From Candidatus Bathyarchaeia archaeon (lineage in GTDB: Archaea > Thermoproteota > Bathyarchaeia > Bathyarchaeales > Bathycorpusculaceae): DNA of 64,000 bases. A program made the translations under genes and the position numbers. Every line of letters starts with the position of its first letter. Position 1 is the stretch's first letter. The notes under the pieces are model-generated. The model was not told where the DNA came from and ran no database searches. It saw only the letters and a program-made list of their open reading frames with translations. Location of the stretch: assembly GCA_038882955.1 (NCBI GenBank), contig JAVZNC010000001.1:64001-128000 (forward strand), written 5' to 3'. Positions 34,337 through 55,270 of the stretch are shown here, in pieces.

Positions 34337-34351
34337 TGGAATTGTTTTCTA
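34337..34351 (-). promoter_or_regulatory. Shared operator copy 2 (TGGAA TTGTT TTCTA)
   Basis: 5 nt upstream of TTTATAA of the scaffoldin gene; overlaps the stop codon of the upstream gene. Confidence 0.65.
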
Positions 34352-36388
34352 TGATTTTTTATTTGGGTATATTTTGTCTTTTAGGTTGTAGCCGTAGTAC
34401 CATGCTGTCCATCCGTTGTGGAAGGCTTCCGTTTCTTCTCTTTTCCTTTTTCTGTGGTAGAGCCAAATTATTAGCAAAAATATTAGGAGTAAGAGTAATA
34501 TGAGTAGCCAGTAGAACCATTCTGGGATGAACCAGCCTTTTGGTGGGGTCGAGATTGTTATTGTGCCGTTTGTGAGGTAGTTGTCTTCTGTGTCTTCTTC
34601 GTCTTGGACTGGCGTTGCGAACGCGCTTAGGATGTAGTTGCCTTCTGTTATGTTTTTGGTGTTCCAAAGGAAAGTTAGTATCGTTGTGCTGTTTGATGTT
34701 AGATTGTTTACTGTCTGGGTTTCGATGGCTGTTGTGTTGTGGTAGACTGTTACTTGGAATGATTCATCGTAATTTCCTTCGTTTTTGGCGACTACTTGGA
34801 TGGTTATTGTTTCTCCGATGTATGCTGTTTGGGTTGATGGTTGGATGCTTAGGAGGGCGATGTCATGTATTGGGGTTTTAACTCGCACTATTCCGTTTGT
34901 GAAGTTGTTGTCGGATATATCGATTTCGCCTTGGACAGGTTCTGCGTAGGCGCTTATTTCATAAAAACCCTCATCCACACCAAAAGTAACCCAAACGAAA
35001 GATAGTGTTGCTTGGATCCCGGATGAAAGATTTACTATTTGACAAGTTTCAATTAAATTTAAGTTTTGATACTCAATTTTTCTATAATAAATACTTAAAT
35101 TGAATGTCTCTGGAACTGTTCCTTCGTTTATAACATCGACGTTTATGTGAAGCGATTCGCCGACATATAAGCTTTCATTTGAGATTGTGATGTTTACAAT
35201 GGCAATATCATGAATAAAAGGTGGAATTTCTTGTTTAATTTCGATAATTCCATCAAGAAACCTATTGTCTGTTTTATCTGTTTCGTTGGTTAAGTAAGGA
35301 ATAAAGGCAATTACCGTGTAATTTCCAGTCTTAAGAGAGGATGTATTAGCAATGAAGTTTAAGGCTATTCTTGAATATGGCGTAAGTTTGGTTACTTCTA
35401 TATTTTCAATGAGGGTATCGTTAAAATATGTTATTACGTCAAAACTCTCAATTTCCGTTCCCTCGTTTTGAACAAATACAGTTATATTCACAAGCTGACC
35501 TTGATTGACAGATCTGGCTGAAGAAATTACTCTTGTGATGGCTACGTCGTGGAAACATAATGCCAATGGTGGTGAAGGCGTAATAAAAAATTCTACCGAT
35601 ACGGCAGGACTATAAGGGATTCCACCTTCATTTATTGATTTTGTGAGTGGAACTACACTTGCGATTGCTTTTCCTATGTGTGACCATTTAGGAATATATG
35701 CCTTACAATATAATATTACTGGTTTCTCATTGGGATAAACTTCAAAATTAGGTACTATAGAGAAGTTGACGGGTACTCCTACCTCGTCTTGTATGGTTAT
35801 GGCGAGTGTGACATTCTTTTCTATCATCGCCATATTTTTTAGCGCAATCTCTAGTCCTACGTCACCCTCAATTCCGAAAAATGCTTGGTAATTGTTATTT
35901 TCGTTAATGGTTCGGACTTGTATTATTTTTACAATATAATCTACTTTAAAGGTGAGTGTATCTTGAACGACTTTGTTTCCAACGATAGTGATGGCTAGAA
36001 CAAACCATTCTCCAAAAAATTCGGTTTCGTTTTCACATTTTTGGGGTATTGTGAAATTAGTTGTTGCAATACCACTTGCATTTGTTACACCGAAGAGAGT
36101 GAAATAGGTTCCTTCAGGGACTCGTATGTGAAAAGATACGAAATAATTTTCGCGGGGATATCCGTTATATGTAACTAGGGCAAATAAAATAACGGCTTCG
36201 TTAGGACCAAATGAGTCGCTTGGCGTATTCGGCCCTCTTCCACAGTATGGTTCTTTTTGTGTGAACACGTCAATTTCTTCAATAGCATCTTCAGAAAAAA
36301 TTAAAACCATGTTTCTTGATACTCCATCGATAAGAATCAGCATCATTATTGCCAAGGCTAACGTTTTCGGTAGAGTTTTCATCATCAT
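34349..36388 (-). CDS. Surface protein: uncharacterised IDxFTQ module + 3 CARDB + TM
   Basis: Signal peptide; three HD(V/I)A...NEG CARDB repeats; TM followed by a cytoplasmic tail containing GWTAWYYGY. Confidence 0.82.
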   Translation of the reverse strand: MMMKTLPKTLALAIMMLILIDGVSRNMVLIFSEDAIEEIDVFTQKEPYCGRGPNTPSDSFGPNEAVILFALVTYNGYPRENYFVSFHIRVPEGTYFTLFGVTNASGIATTNFTIPQKCENETEFFGEWFVLAITIVGNKVVQDTLTFKVDYIVKIIQVRTINENNNYQAFFGIEGDVGLEIALKNMAMIEKNVTLAITIQDEVGVPVNFSIVPNFEVYPNEKPVILYCKAYIPKWSHIGKAIASVVPLTKSINEGGIPYSPAVSVEFFITPSPPLALCFHDVAITRVISSARSVNQGQLVNITVFVQNEGTEIESFDVITYFNDTLIENIEVTKLTPYSRIALNFIANTSSLKTGNYTVIAFIPYLTNETDKTDNRFLDGIIEIKQEIPPFIHDIAIVNITISNESLYVGESLHINVDVINEGTVPETFNLSIYYRKIEYQNLNLIETCQIVNLSSGIQATLSFVWVTFGVDEGFYEISAYAEPVQGEIDISDNNFTNGIVRVKTPIHDIALLSIQPSTQTAYIGETITIQVVAKNEGNYDESFQVTVYHNTTAIETQTVNNLTSNSTTILTFLWNTKNITEGNYILSAFATPVQDEEDTEDNYLTNGTITISTPPKGWFIPEWFYWLLILLLLLIFLLIIWLYHRKRKREETEAFHNGWTAWYYGYNLKDKIYPNKKS

Positions 36389-36511: not shown

Positions 36512-38113
36512 TTAGATTGATTCTCCATAATGCGCTGAGAGGATGATTGCGTCGAATATGTCTATTTCTCCTGAGTTGTCGAGGTCTGCGTTGGGGTTCC
36601 AGTTTGGGTTGCCGGGTTTGGCGCCGAAAGATATGCTTAACAATATAGCGTCGAATATATCCACTGTTCCGTCACCATTAATGTCGCCTAGTAACGCGAT
36701 AAAACGAACTATTACAATTTTTGTTTCATTATCTTTAAGTCCACCAGCATCGGTTATCGTTAGCGTTACTGTATAGTTTGCTTCCGCTGAATATTTGTGA
36801 GTTATTGTGGGGTAATTTCCGCTTGTTATGTTTCCGTCTCCAAAGTTCCATTCATAATTAACTATCGGTGGGCTAGCTGTTCCATTCCAGCCCAGTTTCG
36901 AACTTGTAGCATCGAAGGTTACGGTTTGATTTACGAGTGGAGTTGATGGGTACCATATGAAGTTGGCGGTGGGTCCTGTTGGAGGAAGTATTGTTATAGG
37001 TTTGGATGTTATAGACCACAAGCCTTCACTATCTGTGACATTGAGTGTAACAATGTAGGTGTTAACTTGCGTAAACGTATGGTTGATTGTAGGAGTCGTT
37101 TTGGATTCTTTTGGTGTGCCGTCACCGAAGTCCCATTCATATTTGACTATTGTGTCGTTGTATCCTTCTGCTGTTGATGATGAGGCATCGAAAGCGATGC
37201 TCATGTTAACGTAGGGTTCAAGTGGTGTATAAAAGAATGAAGCTTGAGGTGGAGAGGGTGATGACTCAACTTGGAAGGTTGTTGCATTTTGGATTAATGT
37301 TGAGTCTTTGCTGGTGCTTGTATAGATTGTGTAGATTCCTGATTTTGACTCGGGATGCAGTCTCAAGTTTGTCAAAAAGGTTCCTTCATTTGTAGGTGGG
37401 GTGCTTGGAGGAGTTGTGGAATAGGAAAGTTCTGGGTTTCTTTTAATTTCGAAGGATACAGATTTTTCTGGACAATATGGAATCCCGCCGTCTTTCGGGA
37501 GATTTGAATATATATTGGCAAATATTGTTGCATTTCCTGGATATGCCCATGGGTCTAGGCGTGTTGCCATAAATGAAAAGGTTCTGCTTTCTCCAGGGTT
37601 AAGTGTGGGGTTCATTGGATACCAGACGCCAAGGGGGATGTTGTTTCCATCATAAAGGGTTAAGGCAACCAGCGCACTGTGAGGTTGGCTATCAAAGTTT
37701 TTGATTGTGCCTCTTATGTAGAGGATTTGTTTTACAATAAAGGAGTATTTTGGATTTCCATCTATAGAGTCTGTTGGATAAAGACTTACAAAGTTTACTG
37801 GCCACGTGGTTGCAGAGATATTTCCTGTAGGCACTGTTCGAAAGATGATGGGTAAATTAGAAGGATTTCGTATTTCTACGGCTACGAGGGCATTTGAAAT
37901 TGGTGTTCCATCCTGTTTTAACGCCCCTTGGATTAGTATGTTTTCCCTTATGTAATATGCTGGTTTGTTTGTTGAAACGGCAAGGTAAAGTGGATCGCTT
38001 GATTGTGATGAGTGACATATTGGTAATTTTATAATTATTAGTATGGAGAATAGTAAACAAGTGGATAATACTTTTTTTAATTGCAACAATCCGTCACTCC
38101 TTTTAAAAAGCAT
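36512..38113 (-). CDS. Secreted protein: Ig-like module + 2 PKD + dockerin
   Basis: STNKPAY start, two W(D/N)FGDG motifs, GDINGDGTVDIFD...DLDNSGEIDIFD. Confidence 0.85.
   Translation of the reverse strand: MLFKRSDGLLQLKKVLSTCLLFSILIIIKLPICHSSQSSDPLYLAVSTNKPAYYIRENILIQGALKQDGTPISNALVAVEIRNPSNLPIIFRTVPTGNISATTWPVNFVSLYPTDSIDGNPKYSFIVKQILYIRGTIKNFDSQPHSALVALTLYDGNNIPLGVWYPMNPTLNPGESRTFSFMATRLDPWAYPGNATIFANIYSNLPKDGGIPYCPEKSVSFEIKRNPELSYSTTPPSTPPTNEGTFLTNLRLHPESKSGIYTIYTSTSKDSTLIQNATTFQVESSPSPPQASFFYTPLEPYVNMSIAFDASSSTAEGYNDTIVKYEWDFGDGTPKESKTTPTINHTFTQVNTYIVTLNVTDSEGLWSITSKPITILPPTGPTANFIWYPSTPLVNQTVTFDATSSKLGWNGTASPPIVNYEWNFGDGNITSGNYPTITHKYSAEANYTVTLTITDAGGLKDNETKIVIVRFIALLGDINGDGTVDIFDAILLSISFGAKPGNPNWNPNADLDNSGEIDIFDAIILSAHYGESI
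36521..36592. repeat. Identical dockerin-coding segment, copy 1 (copy 2 at 38238-38309)
   Basis: 72-nt exact match read from the sequence. Confidence 0.9.
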
Positions 38114-38225: not shown

Positions 38226-39248
38226 TTAAAGCGCTTCTTCTCCATAATGCGCTGAGAGGATGATTGCGTCGAATATGTCTATTTCTCCTGAGTTGTCGAG
38301 GTCTGCGTTTGGGTTCCATTTTGGATCACCATTATGTGAGCCATAAGCTATTGACATTAAAATGGCATCGAAAATATCAACTACTTTATCTCCGTTTATA
38401 TCGCCGATTAGAACGACTTCAAATGTTTTATTGGTTGTGGCTATTTGTCCTTCACTGTAAGCGCTTGCATAAACTGTGTAGTTGCCTATGCGGGCGTCCG
38501 TTTTGGGCAGCCGTAAAGATAGTTCGTATGTCCCCGCATCGAATGTTTCAGCATATTGGATTAGGTTTGAGGTTGAGGATGAAGTTGAGCTTGTAATTGT
38601 GAATGTTGCTGTTCTTTCTGGGCAGTATGGGTAACCACCGTTTTTTGGGAAATCCGTGTAAGCGTTGGCGTACAATGTGGCGGTTCCAAGGGCGGCTGAT
38701 GATGGAATTTTATCTGCGAAAAAAAGGACACTTTTGGAGGCGCCTGGTTCTAGGGTTGTGGTCAGGGGGTACCATGAGCCTATGGGAACCATGTTGGCGT
38801 CAAAAAGGGTTATACAGGCTATGACTGCGTGGCTGCTGATTGTGTCAAAGTTTTTAATTTCAAAAAATATGTAGAGGTTGTTTCCTCTTTTGAAACTGTA
38901 TTTTGGGTATCCGTTGGAGTCACATGAGAACAGTTGTGTATAGTTTACAAGCCAGTTTTCAGAAGTTATGGTGCCTGAGGGTCTTGTTCTAAATGCGAAG
39001 GGCAGGTTTGCTGGATCCCTAATTTCGATTCCAATAACTGTGTTGACTGATATGTTGTATGGTTGCCATTTTAGGGTTCCGTTTATGTATACGTTTTCGT
39101 TTAGGCCGTATCTATGTTTGTCTGTGGATACCGTTATTTCAAGTGTGACAACGGCGCTTAATGTTGGTTTTGCACATATGATAAGAAACAGTATTATAAG
39201 TAGTAACCATGTTTGTAAATGCGACTTTCTGATTGTTTTGGTGTACAT
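38226..39248 (-). CDS. Secreted protein: Ig-like module + dockerin (paralog of 36512..38113)
   Basis: Shared EIR.P.NLP..FRT.P.G, PKYSF and PK.GG.PYCPE motifs; C-terminal dockerin. Confidence 0.85.
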   Translation of the reverse strand: MYTKTIRKSHLQTWLLLIILFLIICAKPTLSAVVTLEITVSTDKHRYGLNENVYINGTLKWQPYNISVNTVIGIEIRDPANLPFAFRTRPSGTITSENWLVNYTQLFSCDSNGYPKYSFKRGNNLYIFFEIKNFDTISSHAVIACITLFDANMVPIGSWYPLTTTLEPGASKSVLFFADKIPSSAALGTATLYANAYTDFPKNGGYPYCPERTATFTITSSTSSSTSNLIQYAETFDAGTYELSLRLPKTDARIGNYTVYASAYSEGQIATTNKTFEVVLIGDINGDKVVDIFDAILMSIAYGSHNGDPKWNPNADLDNSGEIDIFDAIILSAHYGEEAL

Positions 39249-39355: not shown

Positions 39356-41200
39356 TTAGGCCCATTCGGCTAGTATGTCCACAGGCACTGGAGTGAATGG
39401 TCCGCTTACGACTGTTCCGCCGTTGGCTGGCCAGTCGTTTAGTACGCCTACGATTATTTTGGCTTGTCCTGCTCTTGCCCATTTGACCACGTGAATGCTT
39501 ACTGTTTCTCTGAAGTTCTTGTAGCTGCAGTATTGGGCTCCGCCTACTGATGTTTCTACGTAGATGAAGCCGAAGGGTACGCCTGTTTCATCTAGAACTG
39601 TGACTGACAGTATTACGTCGTAGTGTTGCATTGCGTAGGATTTGAATTCAACTGTTATGTTCATGTATTCGCAGTGGGCGTATTTGGTTTTGTCTGTTGT
39701 TACTTTGACTATGCGGACTAGGTAGTCGTATTTGAAGGTTAACGTGTCGTTCACAATTGTGCATGCAACATCAACTGTTCCTATTACTGTCCATTCTCCG
39801 AAGTAGTATTCTGGGTCGTCGCATGGCCACGGCAGCCTAAAGAAGGCTTCTGCTATGCCCGTGGCGTTTGTTCTCGCGTAGATTACTGTGTATGTGTCGC
39901 CGTGGGGGTCGATAATTTGGAAGGCTACATCCTTGTTCTGTTCTGGCCATTCGTTGTATGTTACTTTAGCGTATAGTATTACTTCTTTCTGTGGCCAGAA
40001 CATGTCGCTTGGTTTGCCTATTCCTTGTCCGCCGTATGGGTCTGGATATTGCGTGAATATGTCGATCATTCTGCCTAAAACTTTTGGTCTTATGCTGTAG
40101 GAGCCGTCTACTGGTGGATTTTGTGGGACTGGTTGAGCTAGCCAGTTTCCAATTTTAGTGTCGTAGAGATCCAAGACGCAGCTTAAAACTTCTGGGAACA
40201 TTCCTTGTAAGGTAGCGTTGAATTCTATTATGGCGAGCACTCCTGAATCGCTTGGGAACGGCGCATGCCATACACCGTGTGCGTCTGGAAGCACCAAGTC
40301 ACCGAACAGTACATAGTTGGTTCCTATAACATGCATTGGTAATGTGCCTTGGTTCGGTGAAGCCCCAAATGGCTTCAGCCACGGTCCTTCATAAACATTT
40401 AACACTTGAAGTAGTGTATTATTGAACTTCAGTTTGAATTCAAAGCCTACTGCTTCCCATCCGGCGTCCAAATTGTTTATTTTAATGCTTATGTTGAATA
40501 CTTGTCCTAGGGCAGTTGCTTCAAAGCTTGGTGGATCAACCGAGAAGAATGGCTTAATGGTTGGCGGCGACCAGTTAAGCCTGTAATAGCCATTTATCAC
40601 AGTGTGCGGAATAGGCTTTCCAGCTATGTCACCAGGCTTACTAACTGTTATATTAAGAACACAATCAACAAAACCCTCAGCCATTGTTGGAACTTTCTTA
40701 ACTTTTAGGGTTATTATTGCTGCTGCTAGTTTTCCTTCTGGGTAGCCTTCAGCCAGAGTTATATTTATGGGCGCATAGCCCAGGTCTTTGGCTCTTGTTA
40801 AGTTCTTGTAGGTATAGGCGTACCAGACGTGGTCTGCTGCCACTTCGTGAGACAGTTGCCATATGTTTCCTGTCTCACCGGGCGGTGTAACTGTTTTGAA
40901 GAGGTTTTCAGTCATGTCGACGCCTTCAAGTAATGCTGGGTCCCAGTAAAGTTTGAACTCGAAACCGCCAATGTTAGTCATGTTTGCGATGGCGACGCTT
41001 ACTGTGAAGGTATCGCCCACTCCAAGGTATGGTGGTGGAAATATGTTGTTTGTTGGATCTACGAGAACTAGGGCCCCGTCTGTTGCGTATGTTGGAAGGA
41101 CGTTTGCGAATCCCAAGATCATCATTGAAGTCAAGAAGAGCGCTATTGCTTTTAGAATTCTATTCTTCATTTTTGTTTTCTCCCTTCTCCATTCGTTCAA
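39356..41200 (-). CDS. Two-cohesin protein + IDxFTQ module, no TM or dockerin
   Basis: Signal peptide (probable start MKNRIL); GGFEFKLYWDPALL and VGFEFKLKFNNTLL cohesin motifs; C-terminal half homologous to the N-terminal part of 34349..36388. Confidence 0.82.
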   Translation of the reverse strand: MNEWRREKTKMKNRILKAIALFLTSMMILGFANVLPTYATDGALVLVDPTNNIFPPPYLGVGDTFTVSVAIANMTNIGGFEFKLYWDPALLEGVDMTENLFKTVTPPGETGNIWQLSHEVAADHVWYAYTYKNLTRAKDLGYAPINITLAEGYPEGKLAAAIITLKVKKVPTMAEGFVDCVLNITVSKPGDIAGKPIPHTVINGYYRLNWSPPTIKPFFSVDPPSFEATALGQVFNISIKINNLDAGWEAVGFEFKLKFNNTLLQVLNVYEGPWLKPFGASPNQGTLPMHVIGTNYVLFGDLVLPDAHGVWHAPFPSDSGVLAIIEFNATLQGMFPEVLSCVLDLYDTKIGNWLAQPVPQNPPVDGSYSIRPKVLGRMIDIFTQYPDPYGGQGIGKPSDMFWPQKEVILYAKVTYNEWPEQNKDVAFQIIDPHGDTYTVIYARTNATGIAEAFFRLPWPCDDPEYYFGEWTVIGTVDVACTIVNDTLTFKYDYLVRIVKVTTDKTKYAHCEYMNITVEFKSYAMQHYDVILSVTVLDETGVPFGFIYVETSVGGAQYCSYKNFRETVSIHVVKWARAGQAKIIVGVLNDWPANGGTVVSGPFTPVPVDILAEWA

Positions 41201-41332: not shown

Positions 41333-44029
41333 TTATGGTATGCTACCGCCGAAGTTGCCTGCTAAGATGATTGCGTCGAAAATGTCTATGACTCCGTCGC
41401 CGTTCAGATCGCAGAGTGGATCATAGTTGGATGCTCCAGTCACAGCTCCGAATGAGCCGGCGAATGTTATTGCGTCGAAAATGTCAACTTCGCCTGAACC
41501 GTCGATGTCGCCAATCAGTTCCTTTGCCCTAACGAGGTAGGGGCTGAATTGCTGGTTGTTGGCTGTGTTTGGATCGACGACGGTTTCACCTGTTGCTCCA
41601 GCAACAGGGCTTGTGTACAATGAGATATTCCATAGTCCTTCAGACATCGTTCCATCTTCGTACCACACAACTTGCTCGCTGTCTGATCCTCCAGGAGTTA
41701 TTATTCGCACGATGTCTACTGGAATGTAAGTTTGCGTTGGATCCTCAAGGTTTACCCTTCTCAGACAGTAGTAGACAAGCACGGATCCGGCAGTTCCAGA
41801 CAGGTACTTTACGCTTAGAGTGTAGTTGATTTTTGCTGGGTTGCCGCCGAGGCGCATTTCACCTAGGTAGACTTGTATTAGCGGGTAGACGGTTGTTGTG
41901 TTCACTATTGTGTCAGCAGCTGAGATATCTGCCTCGTAAACGGTTCCAACAGCTGCCTTCCATATCGTGTAGACGAAGAGTCCTGGGCTTATCGGGTTCA
42001 TGTTGAATGTCTTGTCGTAGCCGTGAATCCATGTTCTTTCGTAGTGGCGTCCAACTGTTACGCCCAGCGGGAGCTGTGTTGCCTCTGCGTAGTATATGTC
42101 CATAAGCTCGTTGTAGACTTTCTCCCTAAGTTCAGGAGCCAAGCCTACACCGACGTCGATTAGGTGGGCAACATAGCTGTTGTTTATTGCTGAAACGTAT
42201 TCGCCTAGAGCGTTTGTGTATGGCGGTGGACCATAAGATGCACCTTTATACCAGTTCTCCGCCAGCGAAGTTGGGTCTAAGCCGTAAGTTACATTTTGTC
42301 TTCCACAGTACGTTCCCAGTGGGTGCATGAAGGGCTGGAACCAGTTGTGCGGGTCTGGGAAGTCAGCCAACCAACCCACCGTGAAGAACGTATACATGCG
42401 GGTCCTCATGCCAGGCAAGTATGTTGACCATGGCTCTCCTTTTACTATAATGTCAACTTTAGTTCCAGCAGGCCATGGGATGTAGTTTTCAATGTAGTAT
42501 TCAAGCATCTCAGCAGCAGTTTGCCTCACCACGTTGCCGATGTTATAGACAAGTGTTATGGTCATTCCTTCGTTCCAGACGCGTCCACCCCAAGCTTTCT
42601 GGAAGTATTCTGCTGCCTTGGTTAGGTTGATGTCGTAGACTGGTTTTGATTCGTTGTAGTATGCTGTGCCTGGAGGCATGCATACTGGCGGGTGTATTGC
42701 CTCGCCCAGGTAGACATCTTGAATGTATTTGGTGAAGTTGAAGCAGTATATGAAGCCGAGTCTCAAATATCTGTCTGAGAATATGTCTAGTTTGACTTCT
42801 GTTCCAAGTTTCGGCGGATACGGAGTGTTTGGATTCACTGTGAATGTGAAGTAAAAGGCATCCAATACTGGTGTAACGATCTTCATTAGCCTGAAACCTG
42901 GCAGTGTTGGGCCGTCTTTGTTTCCGTCAACGTGTAGTTCTGGGCAGTTCATTCTTGGGACGGCGCAGAAGTCTGCCTGTAGGGCGGGGTCTGTTGAGAA
43001 GAACTGTGCCTTTCTGTTGCTCCATTCCTCAACGCTTTTAACAGTTGCATATGTCGCATAGCCTCCAGCGGGAACACCGTCCGTGAAGAACTCTGCTGGA
43101 GCTGGCCAACCGCGCCAGTATCCATCGAACTTCTCAAGGGTGAAGTATCCGGTGTGTGGGTCTGGGTCCATGGCTTTTAGTTTGTATGGGCCTGTTCCCA
43201 TTGCCATAGGTGCTGGTTCCATTAGTGGACCTGGTTCTGGCGGGTCCCATGTGCGTTTGAATTCTGCATAGGCTTGGTCTGAGGTCCATCCGTATGTTTC
43301 GACGAGCGTCTTGTTCCATAGGCCTTTTTCTTCACACCACCTTCTGCACATGACTTCTGACCATGTTTGGCTTAGGATTTGCTGGAAGGGCGCGTAAGGC
43401 TGCTTTAGGTTGAACCAGACGTGTGTAGAGTTGCTCTCTATAGCGCCGTCTATGTCCAACGCCAAAGCAATATATTCCGTTTTACTAAGATCGCCATCCC
43501 CGTCAAGGTCATATTCATATGAAGTGTCGCACTTTAGAAGAGGCTCGTAAAGCATCCACATTGGACCAGCAGTGTGATCCATGAGCATACCACGCTCAAA
43601 AGAGTATTCAACGTCCTCCGGCGTCACATAACCATAGGTGGAAATCTGCCATGGAACATTTGGCCTAATATGGAAGTACCATGTTTCAACAGTGCCCGCA
43701 GGCGCACTTGGATCCGGAGGAGACGGTATTATGGCGTTTCCAGGCGCAGTGCCAAGACCAGGCCAGTCATCAGCAATCGCAGGAAGGAACGAAGCAGCAT
43801 CAGTCACATTGAAGATGCATAATGGCTCATAAATGTTCTGAATGAGTGTACCACTAGCTGTATCGTAAGCCCAGTGAGGATCAACAGTCTCAGGCATACC
43901 AATCGTAACAAAGTATATGTGGTCGGGGTTTGGTATTCCTTGTCCTCTAACAACAGAGATGGGAATCATTGTACCTACTAGAAAAGTCAACAGCAGAACA
44001 AATAGGATTTTTCGATTCATTTTCTCCAT
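41333..44029 (-). CDS. Family 5 (oligopeptide-type) ABC substrate-binding protein with C-terminal dockerin
   Basis: PETVDPHWAYD, NIYEPL, TPEDVEYSFER, GTGPYKL, GWLADFPDP; ends GDIDGSGEVDIFD...DLNGDGVIDIFD with no TM. Confidence 0.9.
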   Translation of the reverse strand: MEKMNRKILFVLLLTFLVGTMIPISVVRGQGIPNPDHIYFVTIGMPETVDPHWAYDTASGTLIQNIYEPLCIFNVTDAASFLPAIADDWPGLGTAPGNAIIPSPPDPSAPAGTVETWYFHIRPNVPWQISTYGYVTPEDVEYSFERGMLMDHTAGPMWMLYEPLLKCDTSYEYDLDGDGDLSKTEYIALALDIDGAIESNSTHVWFNLKQPYAPFQQILSQTWSEVMCRRWCEEKGLWNKTLVETYGWTSDQAYAEFKRTWDPPEPGPLMEPAPMAMGTGPYKLKAMDPDPHTGYFTLEKFDGYWRGWPAPAEFFTDGVPAGGYATYATVKSVEEWSNRKAQFFSTDPALQADFCAVPRMNCPELHVDGNKDGPTLPGFRLMKIVTPVLDAFYFTFTVNPNTPYPPKLGTEVKLDIFSDRYLRLGFIYCFNFTKYIQDVYLGEAIHPPVCMPPGTAYYNESKPVYDINLTKAAEYFQKAWGGRVWNEGMTITLVYNIGNVVRQTAAEMLEYYIENYIPWPAGTKVDIIVKGEPWSTYLPGMRTRMYTFFTVGWLADFPDPHNWFQPFMHPLGTYCGRQNVTYGLDPTSLAENWYKGASYGPPPYTNALGEYVSAINNSYVAHLIDVGVGLAPELREKVYNELMDIYYAEATQLPLGVTVGRHYERTWIHGYDKTFNMNPISPGLFVYTIWKAAVGTVYEADISAADTIVNTTTVYPLIQVYLGEMRLGGNPAKINYTLSVKYLSGTAGSVLVYYCLRRVNLEDPTQTYIPVDIVRIITPGGSDSEQVVWYEDGTMSEGLWNISLYTSPVAGATGETVVDPNTANNQQFSPYLVRAKELIGDIDGSGEVDIFDAITFAGSFGAVTGASNYDPLCDLNGDGVIDIFDAIILAGNFGGSIP

Positions 44030-44084
44030 TTCTCCCTTTTCTTATCGCAAATTAATATGTCACAACTCTAATATTTAATTCTTA

Positions 44085-44099
44085 TGGAACTAATCTCTA
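44085..44099 (-). promoter_or_regulatory. Shared operator copy 6 (TGGAA CTAAT CTCTA)
   Basis: One mismatch; 5 nt upstream of ATTAAAT in the divergent SBP/dppB intergenic region. Confidence 0.55.
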
Positions 44100-44178
44100 G
44101 CACATCAACCGTATAAAACTCCCTCATATAAATCGACAAAGTTATAAATATCCAACAAATCCATTTCAAAAAGGAGGG

Positions 44179-45234
44179 GTGAGGAGCGTGGGCTTAAAAG
44201 AATATATAATAAGGAGAGTAATATTGGTCATACCAACCCTGTTAGGCGTAATTTTATTAATATTCGCAGTTTCACAATTATTCACACCAGAACAAAGAGC
44301 AAGCCTTTACATAACAAACGAAAAACAACTTCAACAAGTCGAAAACATCATCAGAATATATCACCTAAACGAATCAGTGCTGGTACAACTATCAGACTGG
44401 ATGTCTAAATTATTCCAAGGCAATCTAGGTTTCTCCCACACCTCAAGACTACCAGTTTTGGATACTTTATTAAAAAAGTTGCCAGCCACAGTTGAAGTTG
44501 TAATATGGTGCATTCCCATAATCATTCTATTAGGAATATACCTAGGAATACAGTCAGCTGTTCACAGAGACGGCCCAATAGACCACATAACACGGACACT
44601 AGCAATAATTGGAACATCACTTCCAAGCTTCTGGATAGGCATAATGCTAATTGCAATATTCTTTTCAGGTCTAGGGTGGTTCCCACCAGAAAGAATGAGC
44701 AGCAGTGTTAAAAACTTCATTAATATGTCAGAACAATGGCACTGGTACACAGGATTATTATCAATAGACGGATTATTAAATGGACAATTATGGATAACAC
44801 TAGACCTCCTTAGACACATGGTTTTACCCACGATATCACTCACAATAATCAACATAGCACTAGTCATAAGAGTAATGCGTTCAAGCATGCTAGAAGCTCT
44901 TGGCAAAGGCTACATTGTTGCAGCCAGAGCAAAGGGTCTAAGCAATAAGGAAGTTATAAACAAACACGCAAGAAGAAACGCCTTGATACCCGTAGTCACA
45001 ATTTCAGGACTTCTAACAGCAGGCTTGCTAACAGGAGTCACAATAACTGAAACGGTATTTAACATCGACGGAATAGGAAGATGGGCAGCAACTGCTGCCG
45101 GAGGCGGTGGCTCCGTACCCGACATACCAGGCGTACTTGGCTTTGCCCTCTTTGCAGGAATAGTCTACGTCTTTGCAAACCTCATAGTTGACATATTATA
45201 CGCATACATAGATCCACGAATAAGGTTGGGATGA
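44179..45234 (+). CDS. dppB: Oligopeptide ABC permease (DppB/OppB)
   Basis: GNLGFS, LPSFW, ARAKGL EAA loop, HARRNALIP, DPRIR. Confidence 0.92.
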   Translation: MRSVGLKEYIIRRVILVIPTLLGVILLIFAVSQLFTPEQRASLYITNEKQLQQVENIIRIYHLNESVLVQLSDWMSKLFQGNLGFSHTSRLPVLDTLLKKLPATVEVVIWCIPIIILLGIYLGIQSAVHRDGPIDHITRTLAIIGTSLPSFWIGIMLIAIFFSGLGWFPPERMSSSVKNFINMSEQWHWYTGLLSIDGLLNGQLWITLDLLRHMVLPTISLTIINIALVIRVMRSSMLEALGKGYIVAARAKGLSNKEVINKHARRNALIPVVTISGLLTAGLLTGVTITETVFNIDGIGRWAATAAGGGGSVPDIPGVLGFALFAGIVYVFANLIVDILYAYIDPRIRLG

Positions 45235-45235
45235 G

Positions 45236-46408
45236 ATGAGCACAAAAACAGGCCTTAAATATAGAATACAAGAATTTAGAAGAGGGTTAGGACCAGCAAA
45301 AAAGGAACTGCTCTTCACTCTAAGAAGAATAAAAAAGAGCCCCCTATCAATAGTGGGCTTATTAATAGTAGCATTCTATGCTATGATAGCAATACTTGCA
45401 CCTGTGATAGCTCCACCAGTAAATCCTGACCCATTCAGAATTTGGCGTGACGGTTTCAGCGCAATTCCAAAACCCCCAGGCACTCCAGTTACAGACGATG
45501 TGGCATTGCGGGTCGGATGGACGGTTCATTACTTCGGTGTAGCAGAAGGAGGCTACGACATCTTCTATGGATGCATTTGGGGAACGATAACAGCCTTCAG
45601 AGTAGGCGCAATGGTAGTTGTAATATCACTTGCAATAGGAATTTTATTAGGATGCCTTGCCGGATACTACGGCGGAATAATCGACGAGATATTGATGCGT
45701 TTCACAGATATAATTCTAGCATTTCCGGGACTAATACTCGCTATGGCCCTTGTTATAGCCTTACCACCAATTTGGAACTTGGACGTAGGACTGCTGGGCA
45801 CGGCAGCTCTGATATTTTTAATTCACGCAGTTGCCTGTTACATTTTAAAAATAAAAAGTACTATTTGGATAAGCTTCATTAGTCTCATTGGTTTTCTAAT
45901 ATTATATATTTGGGCCTTAAATTCTCCATCTATAGCAATTATAACTTTAGATGTAAGCCAACTTGATAAAGTTCTAATAGCACTAGCTATCGTTGGATGG
46001 CCAGGCTACACACGAGTAATCAGAGGAGAAATTTTACGAGTAAAACAAGAAGATTATATAGAAGCTGCCAAAGCCATAGGATGTTCGGATGCCAGAATAA
46101 TTTTGAAACACATAATTCCAAACGCGATTTACCCAATAGTGATAATGGCCTCTCTTGACATAGGATCTATAGTCTTAACAGCAGCAGCACTAAGCTTTCT
46201 TGGAATAGGCGCTCCGCCAGGCTACGCAGACTGGGGACAAATGATAAGCTTTGCAAGAAACTGGATCTGGGCAGGATTCCAAGATCCGTGGAAATATTGG
46301 TACACATTCACAATACCAGGCATATTCATTTTTACATTCGTATTGGGATGGAACTTGCTAGGAGACGCTTTTAGAGACATATTAGATCCAACGCTCAGGA
46401 GGAGATAA
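45236..46408 (+). CDS. dppC: Oligopeptide ABC permease (DppC/OppC)
   Basis: MRFTDIILAFP, YIEAAKAIG, LSFLGIG, NLLGDAFRDILDP. Confidence 0.92.
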   Translation: MSTKTGLKYRIQEFRRGLGPAKKELLFTLRRIKKSPLSIVGLLIVAFYAMIAILAPVIAPPVNPDPFRIWRDGFSAIPKPPGTPVTDDVALRVGWTVHYFGVAEGGYDIFYGCIWGTITAFRVGAMVVVISLAIGILLGCLAGYYGGIIDEILMRFTDIILAFPGLILAMALVIALPPIWNLDVGLLGTAALIFLIHAVACYILKIKSTIWISFISLIGFLILYIWALNSPSIAIITLDVSQLDKVLIALAIVGWPGYTRVIRGEILRVKQEDYIEAAKAIGCSDARIILKHIIPNAIYPIVIMASLDIGSIVLTAAALSFLGIGAPPGYADWGQMISFARNWIWAGFQDPWKYWYTFTIPGIFIFTFVLGWNLLGDAFRDILDPTLRRR

Positions 46409-46409
46409 A

Positions 46410-47549
46410 ATGTCGGAAGAAATCCTTCAAATAGATGATCTTCAACTAAAGTTTTATACATACGAGGGAGTTGTTGAAGCTCTAGACGGAGTCAAAATAA
46501 ATCTCAAAAAAGGAGAAACGTTAGGCATAGTCGGTGAAACTGGATGTGGAAAATCAGTCACTGGACTTTCAGTTATGGCAATAGTACTACCCCCAGGAAA
46601 GATAGAAGGTGGACAAATAATCTTCAATGTAAAAGGACGAGCCATAAATCTGCTAAACTTAAGAGACTCCGTACTGAGGAAAATCAGAGGAAAATATATT
46701 TCAATGATATTCCAAGATCCCAGATCCGCTTTGAATCCCGTTTATACAGCCGGAGATCAAATAATTGAAACTCTTCTTAAACATAAGATTAAAGAACTCG
46801 CCGAAAAAGCGATAGAAGAACTAGATAAGGAGACACAGAACAAAAAAGCAAATTTTCTAACAAAATACTATAGAAATAATTTACAAAAAATGATACTGAA
46901 TCCAAAGGCTCTTAGTTTAAAAATCACTTCAAAAATTCCTTTACTTAACAGATATAAAAAATTACTATTTAAACAAGCAAAAAAAGAAGCCGTTAGAATG
47001 CTTAGACTAATGCGAATACCCGACCCTGAAAGAGTCGTAGACATGCATCCTCATGAACTCAGCGGAGGAATGGCACAACGCGTAGTAATAGCAATGGCAC
47101 TCGCATGCAACCCAGAAGTACTGATAGCAGACGAACCTACTACAAATCTTGACGTGACAGTTCAACTTCAAATACTAAACCTATTAAGAGAACTAAGACA
47201 ACAATTCTCTTCATCCATCATTTACGTAACGCATGATATGGGTGTAGTGGCGGAAATGTGTGACCGCGTTGCAGTCATGTACGCTGGAAACGTTGTGGAA
47301 ACAGCTGATGTATTTGAACTCTTTAAAAACCCACTGCACCCATACACAAAAGGATTATTGGAATCGATACCAAGACCAGGACACCCATTCAAGTCTATTG
47401 AAGGCACTGTTCCTAGCCTAATAGATCCACCTAAAGGCTGCCGATTCCACAACAGATGCCAATACGCCATGGAAATATGTACTAGAGTTAAACCTAAAAT
47501 AATTGACGTTGGAAGAAATCACTTTGTTCAATGCTTCTTATACCAATAA
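46410..47549 (+). CDS. dppD: Oligopeptide ABC ATPase (DppD/OppD)
   Basis: [34 protein letters not shown]. Confidence 0.93.
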
Positions 47550-48609
47550 AGATGTGAGAACAATGAAAACATTAATAGAAGTAAGAAGATTGAAGAAATA
47601 CTTCCCAGTTTTAGGAGGAGTCCTAAGAAGGAAAATTGCTGATGTTAAAGCTGTAGACGATGTAAGTTTCACAATATTCAAAGGAGAATGCTTTGGTCTA
47701 GTAGGAGAATCTGGTTGCGGAAAAACCACGCTTGGCAAAACAACAATTCGCTTACATGATCCAACCGCCGGCAGCATATACTTTGATGTCCCAGAAGACA
47801 TCATAAAAGAGATAGAGGAACTAGAAAGAAATGATCCAAAATCTCATAGATTAAAAGAGTTAAGAAGAAGATATGATCTTGCAACGTACAGGGGAGCAAT
47901 GCTTGCTAGCATGAGAAGAAGAATGCAAATAGTGTATCAAGATCCAACAACATCGTTAAATCCGAGGATGCTTGTGAAAGACATCGTTGCAGAACCACTA
48001 ATTGTACAAGGACTCGCCAAAGGTTTGGAAGCAAGAAAAAGAGTTTTAGAGATCCTAAATAGGGTAGGATTAACAGAAAGACACCTATATCGATATCCAC
48101 ATGAATTTAGTGGTGGGCAGAGGCAGAGAATAGCAGTAGCAAGGGCGCTGGTGACTAACCCTGACTTTATAGTGTTAGATGAACCCACATCCTCTGTAGA
48201 CGTGTCGGTTCGCGCCCAGCTACTAAATCTGTTTCAGAATTTACAAAAAGATTTGAACTTAACATACGTATTCATAAGTCATGACTTAAGCGTTGTCGAA
48301 TGCATAGCGCAAAGGGTAGCAGTTATGTATCTTGGGAAGATCGTGGAAGTAACACAAACAGAGGAACTATTCAAAAATCCTCTTCATCCATATGCTCAAG
48401 CATTGTTTTCGGCAATACCAATTCCAGATCCTACTATCAAAAGAAAACCAATAATGCTTACGGGAGAGGTGCCTAGCCCAGTTAATCCTCCTACGGGTTG
48501 TAGATTCCACCCAAGATGTCAATACGCCATGGACATGTGCAGCAAAGAAGAACCACCACTTAAGGACGTTGGAAATAACCATTTAGTAGCTTGCTTTGCA
48601 GTCGATTAA
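47503..48609 (+). CDS. dppF: Oligopeptide ABC ATPase (DppF/OppF)
   Basis: [29 protein letters not shown]; start probably at MKTLIEV. Confidence 0.93.
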
Positions 48610-48703
48610 AAGACTTATTATTTTCTATCTGTCAGTGTTAAATCTACAATTTTCATAAAGTATTTATTACCGTAAAAACAAAAATTGATGGGGGGATAAC
48701 GAA

Positions 48704-48961
48704 GTGGTTAGCAGCGTACTAGTAGAAATCTTATGTCCCCAACACGGTCTTGAACGATTCAAAATTAAAGTGATTAGAAAATTTAACATGGCATCTAATG
48801 ATATAGTACCGAAAACAAGAAGCAGACCAAAACCTAAGGAAATAAGTGCCTTGTACATCGGTAGAAACGTTAGTTATAATGAGGTTAAAGAGTACTTGGT
48901 TAACTATTTTGAACAGAGGGGCGTCATAAAGGACATAATTATGATGCGGATGCTTACGTAA
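48704..48961 (+). CDS. Small basic hypothetical protein
   Basis: 85-aa ORF with CPQHG motif; GGGGG SD-like tract upstream. Confidence 0.65.
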   Translation: MVSSVLVEILCPQHGLERFKIKVIRKFNMASNDIVPKTRSRPKPKEISALYIGRNVSYNEVKEYLVNYFEQRGVIKDIIMMRMLT

Positions 48962-48989
48962 AATTACTACATTTGAAAGGTTTCAGATT

Positions 48990-49379: not shown

Positions 49380-49398
49380 AACAATAAAAACCAGTGAG

Positions 49399-50046: not shown

Positions 50047-50115
50047 TTCTCTACCTCATTAAATTTCAAGAAAGAGCACCTTCATTAACTTTACTCCAAC
50101 ACAAAACTCTTTCTT

Positions 50116-52003: not shown

Positions 52004-55000
52004 TTATGGGTCTGTTTCTCCGAAGTGAGTTGAGAGGATGATGGCGTCGAAGATATCTATTTCGTTTGTGTTGTCGATGTCTGCGTTTGGGTTCCAGTTT
52101 GGATCGCCTTGTTTGGCGCCGAAGGATGTGCTTAACAGTATTGCGTCGTAGATGTCTATTGTTCCGTCTCCGTTGATGTCGCCTGGAATGCCAACGTAAA
52201 CTATGCCATCGCTAAACGTGTTGTCCGCGGTTTCGGTTTCGCTTGGAACAGGCCAAGCATAAGCCCACATCGTATAATTGCCCTTAGTAAAACCACTAGT
52301 GTCCCATGCGAAGGTTAACGTGATATTCTCACCCGAATTTAAGGTTATTTCTTGTGTTCCGATTTCGGTGGAGTTTGCATAGGCAGTTACGTTGAAAGTT
52401 TCAGAATAGTCGCCTTGATTCTCAACAGTTACATAAACGCTACAAGTGAAGTTATTACCAACAGTGGGCATAGGCGAACATCCAGTCTTGGAAGTTGTAA
52501 TGTTTTTGACGGAAACATCATGCACATAAACAGCGTATGGGCAAGTTATCACTGCAGCCTCAATCTGCCATATGGTGCCAGGTGGATTAACTATTGACCC
52601 AGGATAGCCGATGATTGCAAGTGGGCCGCCTGGACATGGCTGTATTATGACTTTGTACATGTCGTGTGAGACCAAGTTAGCTTTGTTGTGTGTAATGTAT
52701 GGTGGTTCAGGTGGTGGGTGAACATGCGGGACTGGAACATTGCCCGGTCCTCCTGCTTCTGCATTGTCGTTTATTGGGTCGCTTAATACTATTTCCCATG
52801 TAGTAGCGTTTAAGCCTGCAACTGTGACGTAATGTGCACCTTCATCGTAGCGGTACCATTCAACGCCGTTATAGTACCATGGAGCAATAAGTAAGACAAC
52901 GTCTTGGCATCTCATAACTTCATCTACGATAAGTTCCCATGGAGGCGCCATCACTGTATGTTCATAGAACATTCCGCTTAAGCCCATATTCATCTGCACA
53001 AGCATAAGATCATTCATGTTTATGACATTGTCAGCTGTTGGTGGATATGTCGTCGTTGCTGGCCATATGTCGGCTCTGATGTCCCAGCCTGGCATTCCTG
53101 GACTTGTTCCCCAAGCAGCAAGAACTATTGCTTGGTCATTCTGGGTGACAATTCCGTCTCCGTCCACATCTCCAAGCGGGTTCACTCCGGTCCACGATAG
53201 ATAGTGCGTCAGTCCAGCTTGCATGTCGAAGACATTTGTACCAAGCTTAACAATGCCTGTTCTTAAGCCGTTCGTATCCATCAAATATGCCAAATGCTCA
53301 ACCAACGGCTGAACGTTCTGCGGGTCATGGTCGTCCCATGGACCGTAGGCTTGAACCAGCGGATAGTTGTCAATTATTGTTGGTGGAGGCACAGTGTTTG
53401 GCTCGAACTCTGAGTCTAGCCACCAAAGCGAGTTTGCAACAGCAACTGGTCCACAGTGGCTCCAGCGTTGCGCAGAATCCCACCAGGGGTAGGTGCCGAG
53501 TTGTCTTTGGTCGAAGTCTGGCATTCCACTCGGAGCGTAATCTGGGAATGGGGGCTTCATGTACCATGATGGTGACGGAGGAGGTCCCTCCGTTATTTTC
53601 TTAACAGTGATGTCTAACGCTACTTCGTCGACTAGGCACCGCATAGTTCCGTCGGGGCTTTGAAGTTCGAGGATGTCAAAGTGGCTGAGGATTCCATTAC
53701 AGTTGTCGTACCACTTCTCGATTGTAAGTGGATAGCCAAATCGGTTGGTTGGACAGACTACTTCCCAACCAGTGTATAATGGGTTTGTCTTTGGATAGTA
53801 CATTAGCTTCCAATTGTACATGGCATCAAGATACTCTACGTATATCCGTTCTCCTACCGTGAATGGCATGGTTGGGTCAACATCGTTTACTGTGAGGTTG
53901 AGGGTAAGTGTCACGTTTTCTACATGATACTTGTCGGTCGGACCAGTTGGCAGAAGCGTCAGAGTGATGTTATAGCAAGGACTTAGCTGTCTTTCGCCAG
54001 GGCCTTCCCAATCTAATGTGTAATAGTCATTGACGCAGCAGTTAGGGTAAAGTTCATGCCAAACTATGCCATAGGTTATGTCATAGGGAGCGATAAACTC
54101 CTCGTTGAGGATTACGTCTATTGAAATTTCTTCAACGTGCCACCAACCATAATAGAAGTCTATGTTCAAATCGTACATTTCAATGTAGTCGCAGGAGTCA
54201 AGCACTCCGTTACAGTTGTCTATCCAACTAGTAATGTTCATAGAAGCGGAATAGGATGGGTAGACTTCGTGCCATGTTGAGTTTACCACCGTTGTCTTAA
54301 TATTGTACATCGTCTCGAAAGGCCCTTTATATTCGATGCACATTTCTTGCATAGGATCGCTTTCATTGATTACCCTCATTGTAAAAGTTACCCTGTCAAC
54401 ATAGTACCATTTTGTCATTCCACTTGTCTGGTTAATCATTTCAATGTGATCGCCGGGGCTAAGCATTTCATGGAACAATATGTCTTCAGGTGGTTCTTCC
54501 CAACGGGTGGTAAGGTGGTAGTTGCAGAAGTTTGGGTAAAGTTCATGCCACTCGATGCCAATAGGGTTCGTAACTTTTTCGTTTAGGATCAGATCCGTAG
54601 CATATTCTTCAACGTGCCACCAAAGTCCTGGCCATTGTCCGAACTCGATCCAGTCGCAGACGCCCAGATAGCCTGTGTTACCTATCCCAGTGTCTTGCCA
54701 GTTAACGATGTGGTATGGGTTTCCTGGACCGAACACTCCATGGTAGACGGGCCATACTTCGTGCCATAGGGTGCATATGGGTTGAATATATGGGTTGTAT
54801 GGTCCTTTAAATTCAACGTATATCTCTTCGTCATGCGTGTTCCGCAACTTCATTGTCATTGTTACTCTGTCTACATGGAACCAGTGCATTTTTTGAGAAC
54901 CGATGATAGTCATGCCGAATTGGTCAGAAGAGTCAAGATAACCGTTGCCGTTGTCTGCCCAAGCCCAGAGATGCCAGTTTTCGCAGTACGTGGGGTAAAG

Positions 55001-55270
55001 TTCGTGCCAAATGAAGCCAACTGGGTTAGTTAGGTCTATTATTCCTATTGTTGAGTGCATGTGGATGGGTGTGAGAGGTAGACCGTGCATGTGGATAGGT
55101 GTTAAAGAAGGACCATGAAGATAAATGAGCCCCTCGGACTGTGCTATTGCAGGTAGTTTCAAGTTAACTAGCAGCAGAGATGAAAACAGCAAAGCCAAGG
55201 TGAAAATAATAGAAACCCTCTTCTTATTAGACGTTGACATTTTCCTTTCTCCCCGTGTTTTATTTTTCAC
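52004..55270 (-). CDS. Secreted multidomain protein: 6 WHExYP repeats, putative C39-like cysteine peptidase with inserted dockerin, CARDB, C-terminal dockerin
   Basis: Signal peptide; FDQ...HCGPVAVAN, GAHYVTVAG, LSDP; internal GDVDGDGIV; terminal GDINGDGTIDIYD...DIDNTNEIDIFD. Confidence 0.8.
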   Translation of the reverse strand: MKNKTRGERKMSTSNKKRVSIIFTLALLFSSLLLVNLKLPAIAQSEGLIYLHGPSLTPIHMHGLPLTPIHMHSTIGIIDLTNPVGFIWHELYPTYCENWHLWAWADNGNGYLDSSDQFGMTIIGSQKMHWFHVDRVTMTMKLRNTHDEEIYVEFKGPYNPYIQPICTLWHEVWPVYHGVFGPGNPYHIVNWQDTGIGNTGYLGVCDWIEFGQWPGLWWHVEEYATDLILNEKVTNPIGIEWHELYPNFCNYHLTTRWEEPPEDILFHEMLSPGDHIEMINQTSGMTKWYYVDRVTFTMRVINESDPMQEMCIEYKGPFETMYNIKTTVVNSTWHEVYPSYSASMNITSWIDNCNGVLDSCDYIEMYDLNIDFYYGWWHVEEISIDVILNEEFIAPYDITYGIVWHELYPNCCVNDYYTLDWEGPGERQLSPCYNITLTLLPTGPTDKYHVENVTLTLNLTVNDVDPTMPFTVGERIYVEYLDAMYNWKLMYYPKTNPLYTGWEVVCPTNRFGYPLTIEKWYDNCNGILSHFDILELQSPDGTMRCLVDEVALDITVKKITEGPPPSPSWYMKPPFPDYAPSGMPDFDQRQLGTYPWWDSAQRWSHCGPVAVANSLWWLDSEFEPNTVPPPTIIDNYPLVQAYGPWDDHDPQNVQPLVEHLAYLMDTNGLRTGIVKLGTNVFDMQAGLTHYLSWTGVNPLGDVDGDGIVTQNDQAIVLAAWGTSPGMPGWDIRADIWPATTTYPPTADNVINMNDLMLVQMNMGLSGMFYEHTVMAPPWELIVDEVMRCQDVVLLIAPWYYNGVEWYRYDEGAHYVTVAGLNATTWEIVLSDPINDNAEAGGPGNVPVPHVHPPPEPPYITHNKANLVSHDMYKVIIQPCPGGPLAIIGYPGSIVNPPGTIWQIEAAVITCPYAVYVHDVSVKNITTSKTGCSPMPTVGNNFTCSVYVTVENQGDYSETFNVTAYANSTEIGTQEITLNSGENITLTFAWDTSGFTKGNYTMWAYAWPVPSETETADNTFSDGIVYVGIPGDINGDGTIDIYDAILLSTSFGAKQGDPNWNPNADIDNTNEIDIFDAIILSTHFGETDP

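Follow-up and report, generated by a model that had tools for sequence, protein, structure and literature searches.

We analysed a window of 64,000 nucleotides (nt) of DNA from a Candidatus Bathyarchaeia archaeon (GenBank assembly GCA_038882955.1, contig JAVZNC010000001.1, positions 64,001 to 128,000), in which the gene for a solute-binding protein (SBP) of the ATP-binding cassette (ABC) type, P0001, lies between divergent dppBCDF-type importer genes and an array of genes for cohesin and dockerin proteins (Table 1). P0001 ends in a dockerin, and comparison with its relatives makes it probable that this dockerin serves as the tether of the receptor. The reading rests on the lack of any other anchor on P0001, on the exchange of dockerins with transmembrane (TM) anchors within the family, on the presence of cohesin genes beside loci of the dockerin type and not beside those of the TM type, and on the finding that an SBP from another, unrelated family in this genome likewise ends in a dockerin.

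According to this proposal, signal peptidase I would remove the short N-terminal signal of the exported precursor just ahead of the sequence IPNPD, which would leave the mature SBP with neither a lipid nor a TM anchor. The dockerin, spaced from the binding core by a beta-sandwich, would then plug in a calcium-dependent manner into a cohesin of the same array. The first candidate socket is the cohesin dyad of the protein that we call CohA, encoded next to P0001. The C-terminally anchored cohesin encoded at 29911 belongs to the same type (its identity to cohesin 1 of CohA is 62% over 217 amino acids (aa), E 1e-86) and is another candidate. A third is the adaptor encoded at 32395, which could in turn be held on an anchored cohesin through its dockerin. 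A docked receptor would remain on the cell surface, close enough to reach the permeases DppB and DppC.

Architecture and N-terminus of the binding protein

A first-pass annotation, made from the letters of the window alone, had described P0001 as a family 5 SBP with a cleavable-looking signal peptide, no lipobox cysteine, no C-terminal TM segment, an internal insert resembling an EF-hand, and an immunoglobulin (Ig)-like spacer followed by a complete dockerin, transcribed divergently from dppBCDF across about 150 nt. All of these points held up in the analyses reported here. The SBP_bac_5 family of Pfam matched residues 116-570 (E 2.4e-31; score 109.6 bits, cut-off 32.4), and P0001 was the only protein to match it in the genome, which is 95.6% complete (1.54 Mb in 31 contigs). 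Homologues start at the equivalent of M4 of P0001, so the true start of the gene may be at 44020. A search of NCBIfam returned no family for the SBP, nor for any of the cohesin or dockerin proteins.

An AlphaFold2 (AF2) model of P0001, built on 121 sequences, had a mean pLDDT (predicted local distance difference test) of 93.8 and consisted of an N-terminal helix modelled at low confidence (residues 1-28), a bilobal core, an all-beta module that matches no Pfam family, and the dockerin. Foldseek aligned the core with DppA, OppA, GbpA and NikZ at E-values of 8.5e-30 and weaker, with 12-17% identity and structural TM-scores (target) of 0.63-0.83; as modelled, the fold of the core is certainly that of a cluster-C binding protein. 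The EF-hand-type loop inside the core fits the canonical pattern D-x-D-x-D-G-x-L-x-x-x-E, which was present at this position in 38 of the 121 aligned homologues, corresponding to one clade of the family; all except P0058 were within the 50 best matches, the query counted. Since two proteins with this loop have a TM segment in the place of the dockerin, the loop is part of the core and not of the tether.

The dockerin consists of two tandem repeats of approximately 22 residues, each with a 12-residue calcium-binding loop and a helix, as is typical of the Dockerin family PF00404. The loops are DIDGSGEVDIFD at residues 841-852 and DLNGDGVIDIFD at residues 874-885, and AF2 placed the helices at 850-859 and 883-892. 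Searched with phmmer, P0001 matched the solved dockerins 2y3n_B (E 2.2e-7) and 5lxv_B, and our own profile of the genome's remaining 11 dockerins scored its tail at 68 bits (E 2.8e-21). Identity between the tail and these other dockerins ranged from 33% to 56%, the nearest being those of the neighbouring genes. We also predicted a complex of the SBP dockerin (residues 833-898) with the 29911 cohesin (residues 34-206); the scores of 0.17 and 0.11, set against a mark of 0.32, were uninformative either way.

Archaeal and Gram-positive SBPs are held by lipidation at a lipobox, by N- or C-terminal TM segments or, in Sulfolobus, by way of class III (pilin-like) signals. In P0001, the presequence has a basic n-region (MEKMNRK), a hydrophobic core at residues 8-26 and the residues VVRG/QG ahead of the conserved IPNPD. 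There is no lipobox, the first cysteine being residue 71, and the only hydrophobic 19-mer that scored at least 1.8 is that at residues 8-26, so there is no C-terminal TM segment. A class III signal was rejected by eye, as there is no G or A behind the basic n-region. We then compared the presequences of 107 homologues with an intact N-terminus. The 55 proteins of the dockerin class and the 8 with a C-terminal TM have a common short presequence (median 29-30 aa) that ends in V-(G/A/S)-(G/A), while the 21 proteins with an N-terminal TM have a T/P-rich presequence with a median of 91 aa and without this site. That the pattern is common to the dockerin and C-terminal TM classes argues for cleavage, and the signal of P0001 is probably cut by signal peptidase I just ahead of IPNPD.

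If the N-terminal helix were instead an uncleaved signal anchor, the SBP would be membrane-bound by itself, and its dockerin would recruit CohA, and through the second cohesin of CohA another dockerin protein, to the transporter. The stretch at residues 8-26 scores 2.55 over 19 residues, which is long enough for a membrane span, and CohA, which has no anchor, is encoded directly downstream in many loci. However, the presequence is short and has small residues at positions -3 and -1 ahead of IPNPD, and the homologues with a C-terminal TM have the same presequence. True N-terminal TM homologues differ from it, as does the N-terminal TM protein of the Peripla_BP_6 family in this genome, and AF2 modelled residues 1-28 at low confidence and detached from the core. 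For these reasons we consider an uncleaved anchor quite unlikely.

Exchange of anchors among homologues

We looked for the combination of SBP_bac_5 and dockerin in other proteins, taking the query and the best 120 of 1131 matches and calling a dockerin when our own profile matched at E <= 1e-5. The combination was found in 65 of these 121 proteins. Another 8 have a C-terminal TM, 21 have an N-terminal TM without a C-terminal extension, and the remaining 27, which we termed 'other', are truncated or have degenerate, duplicated dockerin-like tails. We placed the three anchor states on a FastTree tree of the core that holds 119 of the 121 rows (P0049 and P0074 were dropped) and whose branch support is local only. 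At least 6 changes of state are needed on the 93 labelled rows, of which at least 3 are forced by the starred branches, and the C-terminal TM forms are nested in dockerin clades. Thus, judging from the tree, dockerin, C-terminal TM and N-terminal TM replace one another within the family.

The genes around the SBP offer another view of the same question. We collected 83 loci (80 from metagenomes, together with L002, L003 and L028) and identified cohesins with our own profiles. When at least 4 kb of flank was required, a cohesin open reading frame (ORF) was found in 13 of 18 loci of the dockerin type, 0 of 3 of the C-terminal TM type, 0 of 16 of the N-terminal TM type and 5 of 15 of the 'other' type; that is, in 13/18 dockerin-type loci versus 0/19 TM-type loci. 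With any length of flank, the counts were 14/25, 0/3, 1/21 and 6/30, respectively. Fourteen dockerin-type loci have a cohesin ORF; in 10 of them the nearest one lies at most 300 nt from the SBP gene, and it is usually the next gene and CohA-like. A locus in a genome of the same genus (G003) has, in this order, an S8 subtilase, which fits peptide uptake, dppBCDF, an SBP of family 5 with a dockerin (33% identical to P0001), a small protein with a cohesin and a TM, and more cohesin and dockerin genes. Across 41 genomes (the present one and 40 relatives), 20 have both cohesins and dockerins, 14 have neither, 2 have dockerins alone and 5 have cohesins alone.

In five metagenome loci (L031, L039, L063, L065 and L066), the SBP tail consists of two degenerate repeats of the form FDGKVDGKDLSLFLxxYKG, which fall under the dockerin threshold, and a CohA-like cohesin gene follows the SBP gene after 21-33 nt. 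This arrangement suggests a divergent, receptor-specific variant of the dockerin. The present genome also has a decayed paralogue of the SBP, on contig C7 (L012, 909-1572). One frame encodes an N-terminal piece 75% identical to residues 2-117, and a different frame has the core's end joined straight to an intact-looking dockerin, the middle of the protein and the beta-sandwich spacer being gone.

Such degenerate tails in several homologues, and the decayed copy on C7, would make sense if the dockerin-like tail were only a calcium-binding stabilising module, or a relic without a cohesin partner, on a free SBP kept under the S-layer. We regard this as very improbable. Both calcium loops and both helices of the P0001 dockerin are intact and the tail matches the genome's dockerin profile, homologues with degenerate tails too adjoin cohesin genes (5 of 15, with gaps of 21-33 nt), and dockerin and cohesin co-occur across the relatives.

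The search for further binding proteins in the genome returned no SBP_bac_8 or Bmp match, but it did return a second SBP with a dockerin that is unrelated to P0001. This protein, of the Peripla_BP_6 family, has 535 aa and is encoded on contig C18 (L015, 1248-2855, minus strand), adjoining a LivH-type permease (L015, 224-1192). Of the 120 proteins listed as its matches, itself counted, 113 have a dockerin, which makes them a large family in their own right, with named members from Bathyarchaeia. The other Peripla_BP_6 protein of the genome, on contig C2, has a plain N-terminal TM. We considered a wider proposition, to which we give an even chance: that in Bathyarchaeia the cohesin-dockerin pair is a regular, exchangeable mount for unrelated ABC receptors of the Opp and Liv types, with a dedicated dyad, its gene directly following that of the receptor, coupling them to anchored cohesins or to a second docked protein, in what might be called a modular 'plug-in bindosome'.

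Several observations weigh against tethering by the dockerin. CohA lacks a TM, a dockerin and any known wall-binding module, so that docking there alone leaves retention unexplained and the chain from SBP to membrane is not closed; it may be closed through the 29911 cohesin, the adaptor 32395 or the C-terminal domains of CohA. Five of the 18 well-flanked dockerin-type loci have no cohesin ORF, and in L002, a bathyarchaeial locus with a dockerin SBP, no cohesin gene adjoins the SBP gene, the nearest being 5388 nt away. Because the anchor classes track phylogeny and the loci are not independent, the difference between 13/18 and 0/19 is in part a lineage effect: L065 and L066 are near-copies, the N-terminal TM class is one clade, and there are only 3 C-terminal TM loci. 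Cleavage of the signal peptide was judged by eye and from position counts. Finally, with the whole protein as query, Dockerin_1 of Pfam matched residues 840-889 at 21.7 bits (E 2.3e-4), slightly below its cut-off of 22.9, while the six-frame search of the genome scored the dockerin stretch of P0001 at 25.6 bits, above that cut-off.

The cohesin-dockerin array and the adjacent importer

Downstream of the SBP gene, its strand (minus) carries nine further genes, spaced by 64-170 nt. The first of these, 132 nt from the SBP gene, encodes CohA, and conserved gene order makes it the likeliest direct partner of the SBP dockerin. In the model of CohA (mean pLDDT 83.3), a signal helix is followed by two cohesins and a pair of beta-sandwich domains; among solved structures, CohA matched the cohesin dyad 3l8q best (E 8.5e-16). 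Residues 379-609 of CohA, which make up its two C-terminal beta-sandwich domains, are 36% identical (E 4e-36) to residues 39-261 of the TM-anchored CARDB protein encoded at 34349, where they form the N-terminal pair of domains; this likeness raises the possibility of a homotypic contact that would tie the dyad to the membrane.

Table 1. Features of the window around the solute-binding protein gene, with coordinates counted from the first nucleotide of the window
Feature	Position	Strand	Description
SBP gene (P0001)	41333..44029	-	898-aa family 5 ABC solute-binding protein, dockerin at the C-terminus
Presequence	43943..44029	-	Residues 1-29, signal-peptide-like
Binding core	41957..43942	-	Residues 30-691, bilobal, cluster-C (Dpp/Opp/Nik-type); Pfam and Foldseek
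EF-hand-type loop	43475..43510	-	Residues 174-185, DLDGDGDLSKTE, inside the core
Spacer	41522..41941	-	Residues 697-836, all-beta (Ig-like), no Pfam family; AF2 secondary structure
Dockerin	41348..41518	-	Residues 838-894, two calcium-loop/helix repeats
CohA	39356..41200	-	Secreted; cohesin dyad (residues ~44-209 and 218-370) and two beta-sandwich domains
Dockerin protein	38226..39248	-	Secreted; N-terminal domain without known family
Dockerin protein	36512..38113	-	Secreted; two PKD domains and a dockerin
CARDB-repeat protein	34349..36388	-	C-terminal TM at residues 625-643
Adaptor scaffoldin	32395..34284	-	Three Pfam cohesin stretches, CARDB, C-terminal dockerin, no TM
Anchored cohesin protein	31055..32326	-	Cohesin, Ig-like and PKD domains, C-terminal TM at residues 399-417, KKKFKK tail
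Anchored cohesin protein	29911..30957	-	Cohesin, beta domain, PEF-like C-terminal anchor
Small protein	29061..29786	-	N- and C-terminal hydrophobic segments, acidic tail
Ninth gene of the array	25912-28890	-	PKD repeats and C-terminal hydrophobic segment; outside the proposed system
Dockerin protein	52004..55270	-	1088 aa, secreted, CARDB and dockerin; ~900 N-terminal residues without family
Divergent intergenic region	44030..44178	.	149 nt, AT-rich, between the SBP gene and dppB
dppB/oppB-type permease	44179..45234	+	BPD_transp_1; GTG start at 44179
dppC/oppC-type permease	45236..46408	+	BPD_transp_1
dppD/oppD-type ATPase	46410..47549	+	ABC_tran and oligo_HPY
dppF/oppF-type ATPase	47503..48609	+	ABC_tran and oligo_HPY

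The first-pass annotation had named the cohesins encoded at 29911, 31055 and 32395 as candidate partners of the SBP dockerin. The first two look membrane-anchored, and the third belongs to the adaptor, which has no TM. The 31055 cohesin gave a weak Pfam match (23.7 bits, residues 64-169), and the 29911 protein gave none, its cohesin being assigned through the identity to cohesin 1 of CohA. The C-terminus of the 29911 protein has the arrangement of a PEF-CTERM signal, with VVPEF, a hydrophobic segment at residues 318-336 and the tail RFRTKLR. Its homologues conserve (I/V)PEF, the hydrophobic helix and an Arg/Lys tail, and P316 and E317 are nearly invariant among 41 aligned sequences. NCBIfam, which holds the curated PEF-CTERM model, gave no family for this protein at E <= 1, although models as short as this are easily lost to search filters. 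One gene of the exosortase/archaeosortase family was found in the genome (PF09721, 33.2 bits versus a cut-off of 25.7; G000:C2:209497-210261). The small protein encoded at 29061 resembles the small cohesin-plus-TM proteins of related loci, its own cohesin being without Pfam confirmation.

We measured G+C content across the region and found 48.6% for the SBP gene and 45.5% for CohA, against 37.5-41.8% for the other cohesin and dockerin genes, 37.6-41.1% for dppBCDF and 43.3% for the genome. The RNA polymerase genes are high, like the SBP gene, at 47-48%.

Genome-wide, we counted 12 dockerin and 13 cohesin matches. A second cohesin-dockerin cluster lies on contig C6 (L008, 538-10072), where two dockerin proteins of the NosD/beta-helix type are encoded along with one protein that has two cohesins and two further cohesin proteins that each end in a TM anchor. 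We scanned 11 of the 12 dockerin frames as proteins for cargo domains; for the twelfth, the remnant on C7, only the ORF just upstream was scanned, without a match. The families found on the scanned dockerin proteins were SBP_bac_5, Peripla_BP_6, NosD/Beta_helix, a PQQ-type propeller, PKD, CARDB and cohesin. Pfam gave no glycosidase, peptidase or carbohydrate-binding module (CBM) domain on these 11 proteins, and a cellulosome was rejected for want of glycoside hydrolase (GH) or CBM cargo. The idea of the first-pass annotation that docking would place receptors next to docked enzymes likewise failed, as no hydrolase domain occurs on the scanned dockerin proteins.

The dockerin could also build the SBP into a larger surface or released multi-protein complex for some purpose other than retention; with the PKD, CARDB, NosD-like and propeller proteins it might, for instance, capture substrates or make cells adhere to one another. 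The SBP would then stay near the permease as a by-product of this, or by some other means. The array has a multi-cohesin adaptor and several dockerin proteins of no assigned function, CohA could cross-link two dockerin proteins, and adhesion roles of cohesin-dockerin proteins in anaerobic methanotrophic archaea (ANME) are discussed by Timmers 2017 and Chadwick 2022. We nonetheless think such a complex unlikely: the dockerin sits where relatives have a plain TM anchor, it occurs on SBPs of two families in this genome that are not related to each other, and an ABC receptor must reach its permease.

Tethering would serve the importer encoded on the other side of the SBP gene. The divergent region between them has TATA-like stretches, noted by eye only. 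As is characteristic of cluster C, the SBP is encoded with two permeases and two ATPases that bear an oligo_HPY tail, and the best explanation of the arrangement is that P0001 is the receptor of this Dpp/Opp-type ABC importer. No NCBIfam equivalog cut-off was reached. A divergent dppBCDF is also present in L001 (SBP 85% identical to P0001) and L002 (64%), and of the 18 dockerin-type loci whose flanks reach 4 kb or more, 11 have at least two Dpp components. In GWLADFPDPHNW, the residue aligned with the DPD motif of a solved DppA is D559, which would bind the peptide amino group. By default of the family the ligands would be peptides, but they may also be oligosaccharides or metal chelates; an assignment of the substrate from solved relatives was rejected, these being too distant (12-17% identity).

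The L001 contig, which is labelled Candidatus Jordarchaeia (Freyarchaeota), has the gene order of the window from 41333 to 51921, with ORF lengths (448, 215, 368, 379, 386, 348 and 902 aa) nearly equal to those of the window. The protein closest to P0001 (86%) also has a Freyarchaeota/Jordarchaeia label, and nearly all other named proteins among the matches listed are from Bathyarchaeia. The 90% cluster of the RpoB encoded in the window includes proteins named as Bathyarchaeia. On these grounds, and given that the GTDB family comprises more than 20 genera, an Asgard origin was rejected for the present genome. A wrong bin or label of the L001 contig, or a transfer of the locus, may account for the discrepancy.

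Elsewhere in the window, RNA polymerase subunit A, which most archaea split into A' and A'', is encoded by one unsplit ORF of 1276 aa with Rpb1 domains 1-5 (7301-11131, minus strand). A 118-nt tRNA at 14722-14839 (plus strand) was found by Rfam (45 bits) and not by ARAGORN, and is probably an intron-containing archaeal tRNA. Sequencing runs labelled as hot-springs metagenomes contain the stretch, and none of its runs is recorded as RNA; one run labelled metatranscriptomic, which we judged to be probably DNA, contains only diverged fragments of it.

Relation to known systems

Docking as proposed here would accomplish the same task as the known ways of holding SBPs, since in cells that have no outer membrane an ABC receptor must be kept from leaving the surface, and homologues of P0001 do use TM anchors for it. 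P0001 differs in having no early cysteine and no second hydrophobic segment, and its attachment, if docking holds, would be non-covalent and from protein to protein. The parts also recall bacterial cellulosomes, as represented by the cohesin dyad of the ScaA adaptor of Acetivibrio cellulolyticus (3l8q) and by the cellulosomal dockerins 2y3n_B and 5lxv_B. Such cellulosomes have the two-repeat calcium-loop dockerin, the dyad fold, an adaptor scaffoldin with cohesins and a dockerin, and cell-bound anchoring cohesins. Here, however, the scanned dockerin proteins carry no GH or CBM, the cargo includes transport receptors, and the anchors are C-terminal TM segments or PEF-like, with no SLH (S-layer homology) domains or sortase signals. 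An archaeal precedent for cohesin and dockerin modules outside cellulose degradation is the pair from Archaeoglobus fulgidus, which is non-cellulosomal and reportedly binds specifically.

Dockerin-bearing SBPs are already in print for ANME. Chadwick et al. 2022 (PLoS Biol, PMC9012536) count NikA/OppA- and TroA-type binding proteins among the common ANME dockerin proteins and list such domains in their S4 Data; in the available portions of that paper, the architecture is given in one sentence and no anchoring role is proposed. In those of Timmers 2017, the domains are merely counted. A full-text literature search, with most subscription journals outside its coverage, found nothing on dockerin SBPs in Bathyarchaeia and no anchoring role proposed or tested. 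The ANME proteins, as far as those portions describe them, resemble P0001 in joining a receptor of the nickel/dipeptide/oligopeptide family to a dockerin, in genomes with proteins that have multiple cohesins and a dockerin. The present host, by contrast, belongs to the Bathyarchaeia, its receptor, importer, dyad, adaptor and anchored cohesins are encoded in one array, and a Liv-type receptor has a dockerin too. Retention by docking, which the first-pass annotation had put forward as a further mode of anchoring, thus gains comparative support, but the design was not previously unreported; what the Bathyarchaeia case adds is an unusually complete set of parts.

The role of cohesins and dockerins in non-cellulolytic archaea has been an open question since Archaeoglobus, and a dockerin in the place of a TM anchor gives a testable answer: because the dockerin sits where relatives have a TM and the receptor must stay near its permease, its role would be clear and open to experiment. 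With receptor, importer, cohesin dyad, adaptor scaffoldin and anchored cohesins within 20 kb, the window offers a compact set of parts for doing so. If the proposal is true, archaea would have, besides lipidation, TM segments and pilin-like signals, docking from protein to protein as a means of holding their binding proteins, and the 'plug-in bindosome' would be the first concrete function for archaeal non-cellulosomal cohesin-dockerin systems.

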